Positions 34,051 to 40,004 of a DNA stretch of 64,000 bases are shown one piece after another (the stretch's first letter is position 1; each line of letters starts with the position of its first letter). Location of the stretch: sequence record NC_047776.2; one strand, given 5' to 3'. The translations under genes were made by a program, and so were the position numbers. Under the pieces are notes generated by a model that searched no databases, was not told where the DNA came from, and saw only the letters and a list, made by a program, of their open reading frames with translations. This stretch comes from Escherichia phage ESCO5.

Positions 34051-34052
34051 GA

Positions 34053-34080
34053 AAAGGAGCCATTTGGCTCCTTTCTTTTA
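34053..34080. terminator. bidirectional terminator between convergent arms
   Basis: AAAGGAGCC-attt-GGCTCCTTT with T-rich tracts on both sides; plus-strand gene ends 34050, minus-strand gene ends 34107. Confidence 0.75.
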
Positions 34081-34106: not shown

Positions 34107-34994
34107 TCAGAACGGAATATCATCATCGAAGTCCATCGGAGGTTCTTCTTGATTACTTGGAGTTGGTTCTGGTTGTGGTTCAGGCTTTTTAACTTCTTTC
34201 TTCTCTTCTTTCTTAGGTTGTTCTGCGGAACCACGAATGGCAGCAGCAACTTTATCAGACAGAGCCAGAACTTTACGAGCAGAATCAATCAGATCTTCTA
34301 CAGATACAGTCTTAATGGTATGGTCTTTACAAGCATTAAGGATAGCGTGACCAACAGATGCCCCAAGATCATAATCATTAATATCAACGCCACGAGATTC
34401 AGCAATTTCAGATTTCAGCGTGACAGTTGCAGATTGAACAACCCCAGCGATATCGAAAGCATCGCCTTTAACACCATTACGAATCAGTTCCAGTGCACCA
34501 TTTACTGCGTGACCAGTTTCCAGACCTACAGTATCACGTTTTTTATAGGACTGTTTAGGAGCAGCATCGTTGGAACCTTTATTGCCAGAAGATTTGTTAG
34601 ACTTCTGAACACCATCGGTAGACAATACTGTAATACGAGATTTTTTAGTATTGTAGTAAGTTTTACCGCCTTTATTATCAACGCGATCAATATCAATACT
34701 TACTTCTACACCTTTTTCAATAGTGATCCAGTTATCACCTTCTTTGACTTGCAGGTTTTCATAACCTTCTTTCAGTTCAATGTCACCAAGAGAAATCCAA
34801 ACACCTTTCTCCTCTGGTTTAGCACCTTTCTCTTTCAGAACAAGAGAAGCTCGGTGAGTTGAAACAATCGTTTTTCCTTCCCAATGAAAAGTTTTAGGTT
34901 CAGCGAATTTATCCAGTTTAACGTAGTCTACGATACCAGTTGCATAAGTTACGGTTTTGCCTTTACGATCAGTTTCAGTATTAATTACGGACAT
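34107..34994 (-). CDS. ssb: single-stranded DNA-binding protein
   Basis: 295 aa; C-terminus EEPPMDFDDDIPF identical to the E. coli SSB tail motif; Gly/Ser/Lys-rich linker; N-terminal domain divergent. Confidence 0.75.
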   Translation of the reverse strand: MSVINTETDRKGKTVTYATGIVDYVKLDKFAEPKTFHWEGKTIVSTHRASLVLKEKGAKPEEKGVWISLGDIELKEGYENLQVKEGDNWITIEKGVEVSIDIDRVDNKGGKTYYNTKKSRITVLSTDGVQKSNKSSGNKGSNDAAPKQSYKKRDTVGLETGHAVNGALELIRNGVKGDAFDIAGVVQSATVTLKSEIAESRGVDINDYDLGASVGHAILNACKDHTIKTVSVEDLIDSARKVLALSDKVAAAIRGSAEQPKKEEKKEVKKPEPQPEPTPSNQEEPPMDFDDDIPF

Positions 34995-35010: not shown

Positions 35011-35403
35011 TTACATTAATTTTGCACAGAAAGAGCGGAGTCTTTCCATATCATCTTGCTCTAACAGGTATTTACCTTTACCTATTCCAACTCCAATTTC
35101 ACCGTTAGGGAAATGAACTATTTGCACTGGAAAACCTCCGAGTTTAATTGTGGCAGCTTTGCCTTCTTCGTCTATAACGTTTCGGATTGTATCTTGCAGT
35201 GAAATGAATTCTTTGTTTGTAACAGTGGCTTCAATTATTTCAGAGGTTTCAACACGAGCCGTTAGCTTCTTGTCTCCACCTTGAATAATCAAAATTTGAA
35301 AATAAAAAGAGTTGTCAAGACCTACAACATTTTTCTCAACTAGTGTCAAACTGGTATAATTTCCATAAACAGTTTCAACAGCTATTTTAGAACGTTCAGT
35401 CAT
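35011..35403 (-). CDS. hypothetical protein
   Basis: 130 aa ORF in replication arm. Confidence 0.5.
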   Translation of the reverse strand: MTERSKIAVETVYGNYTSLTLVEKNVVGLDNSFYFQILIIQGGDKKLTARVETSEIIEATVTNKEFISLQDTIRNVIDEEGKAATIKLGGFPVQIVHFPNGEIGVGIGKGKYLLEQDDMERLRSFCAKLM

Positions 35404-35448
35404 TGAATGCTATCCTATCATAAAATGTTTAATATTGTCAAGCTTTAA

Positions 35449-36042
35449 TTACCAAGGAATATCTTCTTCTTCCAATTTGGTATCTACTTGAGGTGGACGT
35501 GGAACCTTAACCTCTTTAACAAAACGAAGATATGGAAAACGTGTAGCGATTTTAATAACATGTTTGGCATCTTCTCTAACATCTTTGTGCAAGAAGCAGA
35601 TCCCTGTTTCCAAAGTTGTTTCAAAATCTTTAGAGTAATAACAATCCTTTCCATCAAATGCAGCCTGGCAGATGGACAGATCAAACTCATTCAGAAAGGT
35701 TGTCATTACATTTGGGTCCATAATCATAAGGTTGCAAAGCTGACCGTCACGTTCAAATTCAAAAACGTGTTTAAGACCAGTAACACCCTCGTAGTTATCA
35801 GAAGCCTCTTTGTTTCCTAGCTTACGAACATTAGTTCCCATTAAAGCAGATGCAATTAGTTCTTGTATTTGCTCTTCTGATCGATGTGCAGGAAGTGACG
35901 TATAGAAATCCAGATCACGTCCAGCAATATCAAGAATACGCCAATCACGAACAGCACCGCCAGCCAAGACAGAATTAGGATCAGCGATCTTTAAGACAGT
36001 AAGAATTTCTTTGGCAATGTTGATTTGTTTTGATTTAGTCAT
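35449..36042 (-). CDS. minimal nucleotidyltransferase (CCA-adding / poly(A) polymerase head-domain type)
   Basis: 197 aa; motif VLAGGAVRDWRILDIAGRDLDFYT matches the GGAVRD...RDxD signature of class II tRNA nucleotidyltransferases. Confidence 0.6.
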   Translation of the reverse strand: MTKSKQINIAKEILTVLKIADPNSVLAGGAVRDWRILDIAGRDLDFYTSLPAHRSEEQIQELIASALMGTNVRKLGNKEASDNYEGVTGLKHVFEFERDGQLCNLMIMDPNVMTTFLNEFDLSICQAAFDGKDCYYSKDFETTLETGICFLHKDVREDAKHVIKIATRFPYLRFVKEVKVPRPPQVDTKLEEEDIPW

Positions 36043-36671: not shown

Positions 36672-39600
36672 TCAATGACAGGATGCCCAGGAATTACCCA
36701 CGTCATATCCGGCAGTAAGCTGAACGTTAAGATTGTAAAATTCTCCAGCCTTAGTAACAGCTAAAGCAGCAAGTTCACCTGCCCGACTATAAGCTGTAAA
36801 CCATCCACCTTTGGGAGATTCATGAATGTTAGCCCAAATTTGCCCTGTCTCTTTTTCCTTATTATGCTTCCATTCTTCAACTTTAGCAAGGCATTCTTTA
36901 TCAATTTTCTTTTGTTCTTCAGGATCGTCTACTTTCTTCCAACCTAATGATTCAGGTGAAAACCATTTGAATTCTACAAGGTTACGAGAAACTTCAAGCT
37001 GGGCTTCATCGTGGTATGCAATCATTTGTTGCACGAAGTCTTTATTCTTCCAGTCATCTTTAAAGAAGTCAACACTTAGTCCTTCTTCTTCGATCATATC
37101 GTCATAAATAACCATTGCACGTTTAGCACAGATAACCCCACCACTTTGGAACAGAGAGTTAAGAATCGCGTGAGCAGAACGAGTAGGAACCTTACGACCG
37201 TCAATACCCAAAACATACTGTTTACCAGTCTTAACCCAGAAATCGTTTAAACGTTCTTTAAGACGCGCCAGTGGGAATGCAGCTTCCCAGAAAGCATCGA
37301 ACACCAGTTGCCCTGTAAACTTATCGCTACCAATTGTTTTAGCAACCTTGTCGGCTTGTGCACCATAGGTAATACCATACTTAACAGATTTAGCAGGACT
37401 ACGTTCAAATTTACGTCCAATAGTTTCAGTGATACGTTTTGCCATCATGGTATGAACATCGTTAGGCTTCTCTAACAAGAGAGCGTTACAGTATTCATGA
37501 GGCTCCGGTTCGTAGCGCCAACAGTTTCCTGTGATGGTAATGCAGTCTTTCTGACGCATGACCCACGTACCAAGTTCTGTTTGTGGACACCAAACATCCT
37601 CTACACCCCACTCTTCAATAGTCAAACTTTGAACAGGAATGTGAGAGCGGTTAGCCAATGTTACCACTTTTACTTTCTGCTCTTTTGTATTGAAAGCTAC
37701 AGAGATATTGCCTCCATGCACCAGGTACGAGGCAGTTAAAGCTGCTTCAAAAAGTTCACCTGGGTTCTGCGCCCAACGCCAAACAGGTTTTTGTTTATGT
37801 TCATGCCAGTAACCATCTGCAATCAAGAAACCTTCCAAGAAAGCTACACGCTCGGCATGAGACATATTAACTACACGCTCTACCCACGGAACATCCCATT
37901 TACCTTGTTGAACAGAAGTTAAACTATTTACCTGATCTTGTTCCATGTTAAATGGAGCATTACAAATAATATTATCTCCTGTGCAAAGCTCGGCAGTTGT
38001 TCTGACTTTAGGCACATAAGTATTCCCTTTACTACGGGTATTAACATACCAACGGTGATCTGCTGTTGCACGGTAAGTGTGTGATTTCCCTTTAATCTCA
38101 AACGTCTTACTATTTTTATAGAAGACCTTACCTTTTACTTTAGTCCATTCTTTCAGACCTGTTTCAGCATTGTACCCTAAAATCTCATCCCCTTCCTTCA
38201 GGTCGTGATATCCTACCCAACCTTTACGAGTCAAAGCTTGAGCATCCATCGGCACACAGTAATGCGACTCAATCTTTGCTTCCAAAGAGTCGAAGTCATA
38301 ACCGATCTGGAAATATTTAGGAACTTCTACACCAAACAAGTTACGCATCTCCCATCCAAACAAAGATGTGACACGAGGGATATTGGCTACAGACCTATGC
38401 TTCATACGAGAGGTTGCAGCATCACATGTAGCGGCTGGGGTAGGAATACGCCCATCTGCCCTTACTGCGGCTAAGAAACCTTTATCGTATTCTTGATCTT
38501 CTTCATCTTCTTCCCAATCAGCACCGCCACCTAAAATAGAGTTCCTACGATGCTTATACGTTAAGTATTCTACAATCTGAGTAGCATAAGGAAATTTCTC
38601 ACCCAAAGCTTGCAGGTTAGGACAGATTTCTTTTTCCTGACCTTTGGTAAAACATGGGTTAGTCAATACTTTAAGACCGCGACCTTTACCTTTTGCTATA
38701 CGCTCTTGAATCTTCCTTTCCAAGGTTTCCGGTGCGCACTCCAGATGATCACAACGGTCCTGACAAAAATTAGAAGATAAAGTTTGCTCAACGTAAGCTC
38801 GAATACCTTTCTGAAGTTCTTCCTCACTCTTTTTAATCTTGGTGCCAGATTTAAGAGTCAAATCTTTATCTTTATATTCCGATGGTACCCAACCTAATCC
38901 TACAAGCCAGTTTTTAATATGGGTTGTATCGTTCAATGTCGCAGGGATGTTAGGATCACACAGAGGCTCATCTGCTGCAACTGGCAGTTTCCACTCTTTC
39001 CCCAACATAACTAACCACCAATCGCCATCCCTCTCTTCCAAATGACCATCATGTTTTTTAGCAAAATTGATCATATGGTTAGTTGGTTCGAGGTTCTTTT
39101 TAATTTGCAATTTAGGCGGAATAAAAGCTTTAAGATAACCTTTTGTTGCTGGTTTAGGTGGCAAAATAGGCTCAACGAGTAAACGAAGACGCTCCATTTC
39201 TGCATCCAAAAAAGCAAGGTTCTCTTCTGCTTGCTTCATATTAAAAGCAAACCCACGGTGTTCCTGGCGCGTGATAATGTCTGCTACACGTTGTTCAAGT
39301 TCAAATGGACCTTCCCATTTATCATAATCACCCCATTCTTCCATAAGGTAGTTATATACGCTCGTATTGGCTTTGTTGTCATAGATACAGTAATAAAGCA
39401 TATCCGCAGCAAAAGTCTTAAATCGATCTTCTTCTGGAATCTCTTTACGGAAATCTATTTTTACATCACCACCTGCTTTTCGAGAAAGTGCTGCCAAGCT
39501 ATGTCCTGATTTGCCCTCAATCTTTCGATCTGGGTTTAACACTTTACTCAAAATCAAGGAGTCAATAAGTTTTACCTTATTTTTGCCCCACGTATTATAT

Positions 39601-40004
39601 TTAACACTGTAATCTAATCCATAAAACAGTTTTGTAGCCAACCAGTCGTAGTTGATACCGTTGTGAGCCACAGCCATTTCAACCAGATATTCAGGCTTGT
39701 CTTTAAAATAACCTTCATGATTAATAAAGTCTGGGAAATCTTTTAGTTGAAAATGCGTGTAATCTTGCGCCACATACTCTTTAAGAACATATGTATATTT
39801 ACCATCTGACTCTTCATAAGGACGCCCATCAAAGATGTATTTAGGGCCATCGTGGAAAGCTACTATTTCTCCTGTTTCATGGTTCTCTAAGACAATACAG
39901 TGCATTTGAAATGTGTCTTTGAGACGATAAGGACTAGCTAAATAATCAATAGTGTCATTATTCAACAATCCGTTTGCTTCAATATCCCATGTAAACTTAC
40001 TCAC
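36672..40004 (-). CDS. DNA polymerase, family A (T7 gp5-like), intein-containing
   Basis: 1110 aa; N-terminal exo motif WDIEANGL; motif A YDFDSLEAKI; motif B SPAKSVKYGITYGAQ; C-terminus ends ...SWASCH (T7: ...NWAICH). Confidence 0.9.
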   Translation of the reverse strand: MSKFTWDIEANGLLNNDTIDYLASPYRLKDTFQMHCIVLENHETGEIVAFHDGPKYIFDGRPYEESDGKYTYVLKEYVAQDYTHFQLKDFPDFINHEGYFKDKPEYLVEMAVAHNGINYDWLATKLFYGLDYSVKYNTWGKNKVKLIDSLILSKVLNPDRKIEGKSGHSLAALSRKAGGDVKIDFRKEIPEEDRFKTFAADMLYYCIYDNKANTSVYNYLMEEWGDYDKWEGPFELEQRVADIITRQEHRGFAFNMKQAEENLAFLDAEMERLRLLVEPILPPKPATKGYLKAFIPPKLQIKKNLEPTNHMINFAKKHDGHLEERDGDWWLVMLGKEWKLPVAADEPLCDPNIPATLNDTTHIKNWLVGLGWVPSEYKDKDLTLKSGTKIKKSEEELQKGIRAYVEQTLSSNFCQDRCDHLECAPETLERKIQERIAKGKGRGLKVLTNPCFTKGQEKEICPNLQALGEKFPYATQIVEYLTYKHRRNSILGGGADWEEDEEDQEYDKGFLAAVRADGRIPTPAATCDAATSRMKHRSVANIPRVTSLFGWEMRNLFGVEVPKYFQIGYDFDSLEAKIESHYCVPMDAQALTRKGWVGYHDLKEGDEILGYNAETGLKEWTKVKGKVFYKNSKTFEIKGKSHTYRATADHRWYVNTRSKGNTYVPKVRTTAELCTGDNIICNAPFNMEQDQVNSLTSVQQGKWDVPWVERVVNMSHAERVAFLEGFLIADGYWHEHKQKPVWRWAQNPGELFEAALTASYLVHGGNISVAFNTKEQKVKVVTLANRSHIPVQSLTIEEWGVEDVWCPQTELGTWVMRQKDCITITGNCWRYEPEPHEYCNALLLEKPNDVHTMMAKRITETIGRKFERSPAKSVKYGITYGAQADKVAKTIGSDKFTGQLVFDAFWEAAFPLARLKERLNDFWVKTGKQYVLGIDGRKVPTRSAHAILNSLFQSGGVICAKRAMVIYDDMIEEEGLSVDFFKDDWKNKDFVQQMIAYHDEAQLEVSRNLVEFKWFSPESLGWKKVDDPEEQKKIDKECLAKVEEWKHNKEKETGQIWANIHESPKGGWFTAYSRAGELAALAVTKAGEFYNLNVQLTAGYDVGNSWASCH
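37524..38258 (-). mobile_element. candidate intein with LAGLIDADG-type motif inserted in polymerase motif A
   Basis: Residues 583-827: starts with Cys (CVPMDAQAL), block B-like ATADHRWYV, LAGLIDADG-like AFLEGFLIADGY, ends ...ITGN followed by Cys; flanking extein aligns to T7 DASGLELRCLAHF / RFDNGEYAHEIL. Confidence 0.55.

Follow-up and report, generated by a model that had tools for sequence, protein, structure and literature searches.

Class II tRNA nucleotidyltransferases are universal enzymes which, like poly(A) polymerase I (PAP I), are about 400-470 residues long, possess a neck, a body and a tail (PF12627) beyond the head domain and carry the conserved motifs RRD and EDxxR (PF01743; structures 1MIV, 3H37, 3WFO, 4WBY and 3AQL). 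Our study concerns a minimal class II-like nucleotidyltransferase (NTase) of 197 residues, encoded on the minus strand at 35449..36042 of a 64,000-nucleotide stretch of Escherichia phage ESCO5 (NC_047776.2; the whole stretch is referred to here as the window). The gene has an ATG start and a stop codon at 35449-35451 (REC_00256, UPW40284.1), and its product belongs to a family that, in contrast to the class II enzymes, lacks neck, body, tail and both motifs, is restricted to phages and usually occurs in a replication-module setting. The evidence is sound that NTase is a member of the Pol-beta superfamily whose nearest relatives, in both sequence and fold, are the head domains of class II CCA-adding enzymes and poly(A) polymerases (PAPs). 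Judged by its motifs, NTase is not a bona fide CCA-adding enzyme, and we tentatively associate its activity with phage replication.

The window is 100% identical to OM386667.1 (Escherichia phage vB_EcoM_REC; Phapecoctavirus, Stephanstirmvirinae), with window position 1 corresponding to about position 66,474 of that record. In GenBank, REC_00256 already bears the name 'putative tRNA nucleotidyl transferase / poly(A) polymerase'. The gene is shared, at 95-100% identity, by more than 60 genomes of Phapecoctavirus, and its orthologs from other phages go by 'nucleotidyltransferase' or 'hypothetical protein'. The annotation is thus not new and is in itself unsurprising; the family behind it is large and mislabelled, its members going inconsistently under 'tRNA nucleotidyltransferase', 'poly(A) polymerase head domain', 'nucleotidyltransferase' and 'hypothetical'. 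The database name of REC_00256 claims too much, since NTase lacks the features by which CCA addition is defined. A function, if established, would give a role to a phage-only family of about 1,000 sequence clusters.

Relationship to the class II head domain

An earlier note on this DNA, written from the sequence alone, had placed a 197-residue protein at 35449-36042 without giving its strand, and there is indeed one ORF at this position, on the minus strand. The GGAVRD...RDLD signature it described is also present, with GGAVRD at residues 28-33 (35944..35961, minus; codons checked; AGGAPRDW in its family-wide form) and RDLD at residues 42-45. The ORF contains ...SVLAGGAVRDWRILDIAGRDLDFYTS... 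across the GGAVRD and RDLD region (translation checked by hand), and its translation has also been quoted as ...LAGGAVRDWRILDIAGRDLDFY..., with both motifs within. The signature falls in residues 3-47 (35902..36036, minus), comprising an N-terminal helix, strand 1, the GGAVRDW helix and the DLDFY strand, which together make up motif A. Only here can sequence homology to class II enzymes be detected, and sequence comparison indicates that the motif is more than a chance occurrence.

Homologues of E. coli Cca retrieved for comparison were all at least 87% identical and unusable as a profile, and a class II set was built from phage Cca genes instead; it comprises 12 head-plus-neck sequences, namely E. 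coli Cca and PcnB, seven diverse phage Cca and three enterobacterial Cca. Against this set, local hhalign with the family gave a probability of 94.5% (E 7.8e-8) over 41 columns covering the N-terminal helix and motif A, and global hhalign gave 86.9% over 191 columns, of which the middle part is of low confidence. An hmmsearch of the PDB with the family likewise found CCA-adding enzymes (6ibp, 4x4w, 1ou5, 1miv) and a PAP (3aql) as its best matches, over the motif A stretch only. PDB searches with a single sequence or a shallow profile returned chance matches only, and the A1 profile of the family reached less than 10% probability against the single sequence of E. coli Cca or PcnB.

The fold points in the same direction. 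An AlphaFold (AF2) model from an alignment of 123 family sequences (22-35% identity to the target, except for two close homologs) reached a pLDDT of 92.2 and a pTM of 0.85, with low confidence only in the last 20 residues; it supersedes a poor first model from 12 sequences (pLDDT 64.5). With this model, the top 21 Foldseek matches in the PDB are all class II tRNA nucleotidyltransferases, in agreement with the head-domain signature that the earlier note had described, and the best matches in BFVD are compact phage homologs.

The three sequence patterns of the NTase fold are all found in the target, as hGG at residues 27-29, DLDF at 43-46 and FEF at 94-96. The two metal-binding aspartates are predicted to be those of D43-L44-D45 (35908..35916, minus), and both are present in 123 of the 123 aligned sequences, as are G28 and G29; W34 is found in 122, R32 in 119 and D33 in 112, and A27, A30, R32, W34, Y84 and K164 are each at least 95% conserved. 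The candidate third carboxylate is E95 (35758..35760, minus), on a strand that spans residues 90-98 in the model and is followed by another at 101-108, where N104 (35731-35733, minus; Q or N in 117/123) is the predicted cross-strand neighbour of E95. F94-E95-F96 fits the h[DE]h pattern of such a residue at the level of sequence. Column 95 holds E in 72, D in 13, N in 19 and Q in 5 of the 123 sequences, i.e. an acidic residue in 85 and N or Q in 24. The conservation of the GG pair and of both aspartates at such low overall identity argues for retained catalysis, and NTase is a real, conserved Pol-beta nucleotidyltransferase that is probably active.

The wider family has a recognisable signature, AGGAPRDW..G..A.DLDFY, Y84, V.E95, G100..VQ104, F120..SIC125, F140, Y155 and (H/Y)161..K164...(K/R)FP170, and the target has every element tested: AGGA[PV]RDW..G..A.DLDFY, Y84, Q/N104, F..SIC and the C-terminal (H/Y)..K...(K/R)FP. 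It matches phrog_10174 at E 4.2e-63 (residues 1-128) and phrog_1614 at E 8.2e-12 (residues 4-189). A profile of close homologs found 1,047 representatives (clusters at 50% identity) in a library of 1.84 billion proteins, and the A1 profile found 332 representatives at E<=1e-10; nearly all members are stand-alone proteins of 170-240 residues. A scan of 185,579 species genomes yielded 5 true family loci, all on contigs of metagenome-assembled genomes, and IMG/VR yielded 80. The family is essentially restricted to phages, with phrog_10174 forming part of the wider phrog_1614. One further locus from the genome scan (L101) was rejected, as it encodes a real bacterial Cca. A subgroup of members has longer ORFs of 290-400 residues (L035, L044, L045, L047-L050, L052, L056; P0078, P0097, P0075), with one or two copies of an uncharacterised N-terminal domain of about 85 residues (MKFKV.SPEHS..IQ..LF..GY.W.G...) that also occurs in separate 202-residue ORFs (e.g. 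L057_16). These extensions gave no functional clue in the form of fusion partners, a Pfam scan finding no domains in them. The homolog of phage ICP1 is short or split, with ORFs of 137 and 60 residues.

Motifs and domains of CCA-adding enzymes

The resemblance to CCA-adding enzymes does not extend beyond the head. The PolyA_pol profile (PF01743), a search that the earlier note had suggested, does match the target at residues 26-74, but only with 15.4 bits against a gathering cutoff of 23; 17 of the 123 family members reach E<0.01 with this model, and the NCBIfam CCA model gives the target 12.2 bits against a cutoff of 438.8. Real Cca homologs carry PF01743 and PF12627 (with or without PF01966). 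In the target, neck, body and tail are absent: a Pfam scan found neither PF12627 nor any other C-terminal domain, and what follows the head in the model is limited to short strands, a pair of short helices and a tail without order. The earlier note's statement that body and tail are lacking thus holds, given the length of 197 residues and the low confidence of the last 20.

All 12 sequences of the class II set have RRD (motif B), the N of TINA and EDxxR (motif D). In the target, global hhalign places F120-D130 (FDLSICQAAFD; 35653..35685, minus) opposite the class II motif B 'RRDfTiNA'. The columns of RRD itself hold V, L or I at 117, D, E, K or P at 118 and variable residues at 119 in the family, and L117-N118-E119 in the target, in a part where the alignment is of low confidence. 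The last helix, with H161-P170 (HVIKIATRFP; 35533..35562, minus), is the counterpart of the first neck helix that bears motif D, and its family signature is (H/Y)161..K164...(K/R)168-F169-P170. Columns 157 and 158 are variable, and the position of the motif D arginine is occupied by H in 69 and Y in 48 sequences. At the position of the class II EDxxR the target has E157-D158-A-K-H161, in which E157 is not constant even between close homologs. On these columns, neither the ribose-reading RRD nor the base-templating EDxxR appears to be conserved in the family. With the Pfam score below its cutoff, this speaks against the identity as a CCA-adding or poly(A) enzyme that the earlier note had implied. 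The isoelectric point was tried as a discriminator and dropped, since the heads of true Cca enzymes are acidic too.

Genomic setting and possible functions

NTase lies in a block of minus-strand genes whose order of transcription is the family-A DNA polymerase (PolA; 36672..40004, minus; identified by Pfam DNA_pol_A and by annotation), three small ORFs, NTase, a conserved protein of 130 residues (35011..35403, minus; phrog_16560, function unassigned), a 295-residue SSB-like protein (34107..34994, minus) and a hairpin terminator at 34052..34075 that would close the block. The ATG of NTase overlaps the stop codon of the preceding ORF. The terminator comes from a consensus scan alone, and the counts of promoter-like and terminator-like sites in the region are not in excess over shuffled sequences. 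The earlier note had put NTase next to SSB: an SSB-like gene is near, but the 130-residue ORF intervenes, and the match to bacterial SSB is limited to about the last 27 residues, the body of the protein being phrog_4477, of unassigned function, without a Pfam SSB or OB match. A good sigma-70-like site (TTGACA, 18 nt, TAGGAT, with an upstream TG) was noted at 35412-35441 on the minus strand, within the 45-nt gap between the NTase stop codon and the 130-residue ORF.

A proximity to replication genes recurs across the family. For this comparison, 2,237 ORFs from 80 loci were clustered, and the NTases were divided into 47 groups at 70% identity, each represented by one locus. PolA and a gp4-type (Toprim plus DnaB_C) primase-helicase are the commonest neighbours, each occurring within 6 genes in 20 of the 47 groups; at least one of polymerase, primase-helicase and SSB is found at this distance in 29/47 groups, and in 24 of the 39 with full flanks, against a rough chance expectation for one given gene of about 0.05-0.17. 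A PHROG scan of 130 immediate (+-3) neighbours found only polymerase, primase/helicase, homing (HNH) endonucleases and unknowns. In phi92, whose NTase is 36% identical, the order is primase-helicase, gp160, PolA, NTase, 130-residue protein and SSB-like protein, and the 130-residue protein is kept downstream of NTase in 10 loci, including phi92 (gp157). In the podophage fHe-Kpn01, the gene of the more distant relative Gp22 directly follows that of PolA, whose end it overlaps. A place in the replication module is thus frequent in the family, but not universal.

A second pointer to the replisome is found at the C-terminus of the protein. Residues 178-197 (35452..35511, minus; pLDDT about 66) form a variable linker of low confidence and an acidic tip, EEEDIPW (35452-35466). 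The protein ends in ...LEEEDIPW, and close homologs end in DDIPW, the tip being conserved past the variable linker. A similar tip, DDDIPF, is found on the neighbouring SSB-like protein, whose C-terminus, PPMDFDDDIPF (34107-34139), is identical to the tip of E. coli SSB. Tips of this kind serve as motifs for docking, both in bacterial SSB and in the replisome of T7. At related loci, SSB-like proteins end in D-[IV]-P-[WF] and primase-helicases in acidic-aromatic tails. Individual endings that we noted are ...NDVAEF, ...QDPCEF and ...EDEVHEF for primase-helicases (L048, L064, L067, L044) and D-[IV/T/A]-P-[WF] for SSB-like proteins (L029, L031, L043, L033), as in the T7 replisome. The tip of NTase itself is confined to the Phapecoctavirus/phiWec clade, 2 of the 47 groups, and is therefore a lineage-specific addition, pointing to docking within the replisome or the SSB interactome of this phage.

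The function that we favour, although we would put it at somewhat less than an even chance, is a template-independent nucleotidyl transfer to 3' ends, carried out in association with the replication machinery and distinct from CCA repair of tRNA. NTase is a divergent, stand-alone, head-only offshoot of the class II enzymes, predicted to be catalytically intact. It has retained the helix at the N-terminus, the helix with GGxxRD and the strand with DxD, together with what is likely to be the third acidic residue and a single helix that corresponds to the beginning of the neck, after which the protein stops. It would use two metals to transfer nucleotides onto a 3'-OH without a template and without the nucleotide selection of CCA-adding enzymes, and its substrate might be the 3' ends of primers or DNA, or RNA handled at the fork. 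The acidic head and the lack of an RNA-binding body suggest that substrate capture probably depends on a docking partner, and in Phapecoctavirus the flexible tail ending in EEEDIPW probably docks NTase onto a binder of the SSB-like DDDIPF tip. A more specific version, to which we give clearly less credence, is that the family represents an unrecognised accessory of PolA/gp4-type phage replisomes. Such a terminal nucleotidyltransferase would derive from the head of a CCA-adding enzyme, with templating of nucleotides and binding of tRNA both lost; in Phapecoctavirus it would be tethered to the fork by mimicry of the SSB tip, and it would extend the 3' ends of primers or DNA without a template, perhaps for their protection or priming.

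Several observations weigh against an activity linked to replication. There is no detected replication gene within 6 genes in 18/47 groups, and since nucleic-acid enzymes all cluster in compact phage genomes, the neighbourhood is weak evidence for a role in the replisome. In two unrelated phages, ICP1 (ICP1_2001_A locus L087, 5956-10438) and Shewanella phage 1/40 (locus L104, 6111-12945), the family member instead adjoins PRPP-synthetase-like and NadV-like genes, a pair similar to phage NAD+ reconstitution genes, and in phage 1/40 a true Cca is two genes away from it, with a peptidyl-tRNA hydrolase close by. The SSB-like tip, limited to two groups, cannot define the function of the family. The third carboxylate is not universal, N or Q taking its place in 24/123 sequences, and the statements on motifs B and D rest on sequence columns, the middle of the hhalign alignment being of low confidence. 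Finally, the literature search found nothing on the function of the family beyond the toxicity of Gp22.

The first of the candidate roles in the earlier note, repair of tRNA 3' ends, would have a minimal CCA-, CC- or A-adding enzyme mend acceptor ends of host or phage tRNAs damaged by host nucleases or exonucleases; we consider it possible but unsupported and, overall, unlikely. It draws on the fact that the nearest folds and the sole sequence homologs of NTase are class II tRNA nucleotidyltransferases, and on the tRNAs of the phage, of which 10 are annotated and an 11th, unannotated, was detected with Rfam (Tyr-like, with a long variable arm; L004 9364-9448), in a cluster just upstream of the window (OM386667.1 58666-60677; L004 8666-10677). 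All 11 of the called tRNAs, however, end in an encoded CCA, which led us to reject a role in tRNA maturation, and the host has its own Cca. Across related viral loci, tRNA genes occur within 10 kb in only 7 of 60, and one family member resides in a 47.7-kb Zobellviridae phage without tRNA genes (the record is labelled a partial genome). Putative RNA ligase and phosphatase genes are present elsewhere in the genome, about 48 kb from NTase, but the PHROG scan found no RNA-repair genes among the 130 immediate (+-3) neighbours. Although the E157-D158-x-x-H161 of the target stands at the position of the class II EDxxR, both RRD and EDxxR, invariant in class II enzymes down to the 246-residue protein of phage A3Wally, are not conserved in the family; there is no tRNA-binding body or tail, the core is acidic (pI 5.4), and the Pfam score is under its threshold. 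True class II Cca, moreover, is easily recognised in 423 phage records (40-56% identical to E. coli Cca), and comparison with Cca sequences found none in the target phage. In Shewanella phage 1/40, a true Cca of 437 residues (S140_97) is followed at a distance of two genes by a family member (S140_99; 97.2%, E 3.5e-11, 166 columns), so that the two are not redundant, even though this adjacency and the nearby peptidyl-tRNA hydrolase hint at a tRNA-related or metabolic link.

An activity directed against the host seems to us equally doubtful. An unregulated head-domain transferase could shut off the host by adding untemplated nucleotides to RNA 3' ends, either in the manner of PAP, leading to RNA decay and nucleotide recycling, or in that of MenT, blocking tRNA charging. 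The phrog_1614 relative Gp22 is toxic on induction in E. coli, which RNA tailing or tRNA modification would fit; the loss of the base-templating motif would suit a relaxed specificity, and a setting among genes of nucleotide and DNA metabolism is in keeping with nucleotide scavenging. Yet Gp22 is only distantly related (72% over 28 columns with the A2 profile), toxicity on over-expression is non-specific evidence, and the head of NTase is acidic, compared with a pI of 9.8 for that of PAP I. Transfer to something other than a polynucleotide, such as a small molecule, a nucleotide signal or a protein hydroxyl, in counter-defence or in NAD/PRPP-linked metabolic chemistry, is less probable still: a small, acidic protein with no nucleic-acid-binding domain and the PRPP-synthetase-like and NadV-like neighbours in ICP1 and phage 1/40 are compatible with it, but adjacency to NAD genes is seen in two lineages only, and models of defence and anti-defence systems gave no match. 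We regard it as highly improbable that NTase is a dead enzyme which keeps the fold for a structural or regulatory role; the third acidic residue is N or Q in about 20% of members and motifs B and D are lost, but the invariance of the GG pair and of both aspartates over 123 sequences so divergent from the target argues against such a role.

Some further features of the genome and its relatives were noted in passing. Further tRNA-like stretches were seen by eye (for instance at about L004 9049-9143 and 10521-10596), which neither tool called. A putative RNA ligase, a metallophosphatase, an 'anti-restriction nuclease' and a second RNA-ligase-like gene at OM386667.1 52029-54374 make up a possible RNA-repair cluster. 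The polymerase has an insert of about 245 residues (residues 583-827; window 37524-38258, minus), missing from several homologs, which begins with a Cys after ESHY, contains LEGFLIADG and ends in ...TGN|C; these features give it the look of an intein that carries a LAGLIDADG endonuclease, an identity that Pfam and PDB sequence searches did not confirm. OM386667.1 also has a complete-looking dTDP-rhamnose pathway with RmlA-D-like genes (L002 32966-36244), and in phi92 two glycosyltransferases lie beside the replication genes (L088 1-971); these genes could be a sign that DNA or the host surface is modified with sugars.

Comparison with described small nucleotidyltransferases

Apart from the full-length class II enzymes, several small proteins bear on the identity of NTase. 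The S. pneumoniae protein NP_344798.1 (2LA3; PF06042-type), deposited as 'CCA-adding enzyme head domain', is likewise stand-alone and of similar length, at 191 residues, but it is bacterial and not from a phage, and no link between it and the target family was detected by sequence or Pfam. The MenT/AbiEii (DUF1814) toxins, among which the MenT enzymes have the 3' ends of tRNA as their target, are also small enzymes of Pol-beta fold, and the phage family, too, has one relative whose expression is toxic. Identity as a toxin or as part of a defence system was rejected at the profile level, there being no match to defence, anti-defence or toxin NTase models.

A genuinely minimal, phage-encoded class II enzyme does exist, in the form of the truncated gp272 (246 residues) of Microbacterium phage A3Wally. 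This protein retains both RRD and EDPLR, and over 180 residues it shares 38% identity with E. coli Cca, whereas the target carries neither of the motifs and is not similar to Cca at the level of BLAST.

The proteins most like NTase in build are Gp22 of fHe-Kpn01 and the other phrog_1614 'nucleotidyltransferases' of phiKMV/KP34-like and other phages, which are stand-alone proteins of about 180 residues. Gp22 (182 residues) matches phrog_1614 over its full length at E 1.3e-39. Its GG, as that of the target, is found near residue 29 and its DxD near residue 44, and its gene stands directly after that of a family-A polymerase. It differs from the target in lacking both the W after RD and the DDIPW tip, and the profile of the target's subfamily (A2) recognises it with a probability of 72% over 28 columns, in motif A only, as expected of a distant relative. 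Induction of Gp22 inhibited the growth of E. coli, and its authors noted a resemblance to CCA-adding enzymes (PMC7291057). With one relative toxic to E. coli, the family is a possible source of growth-inhibitory proteins.

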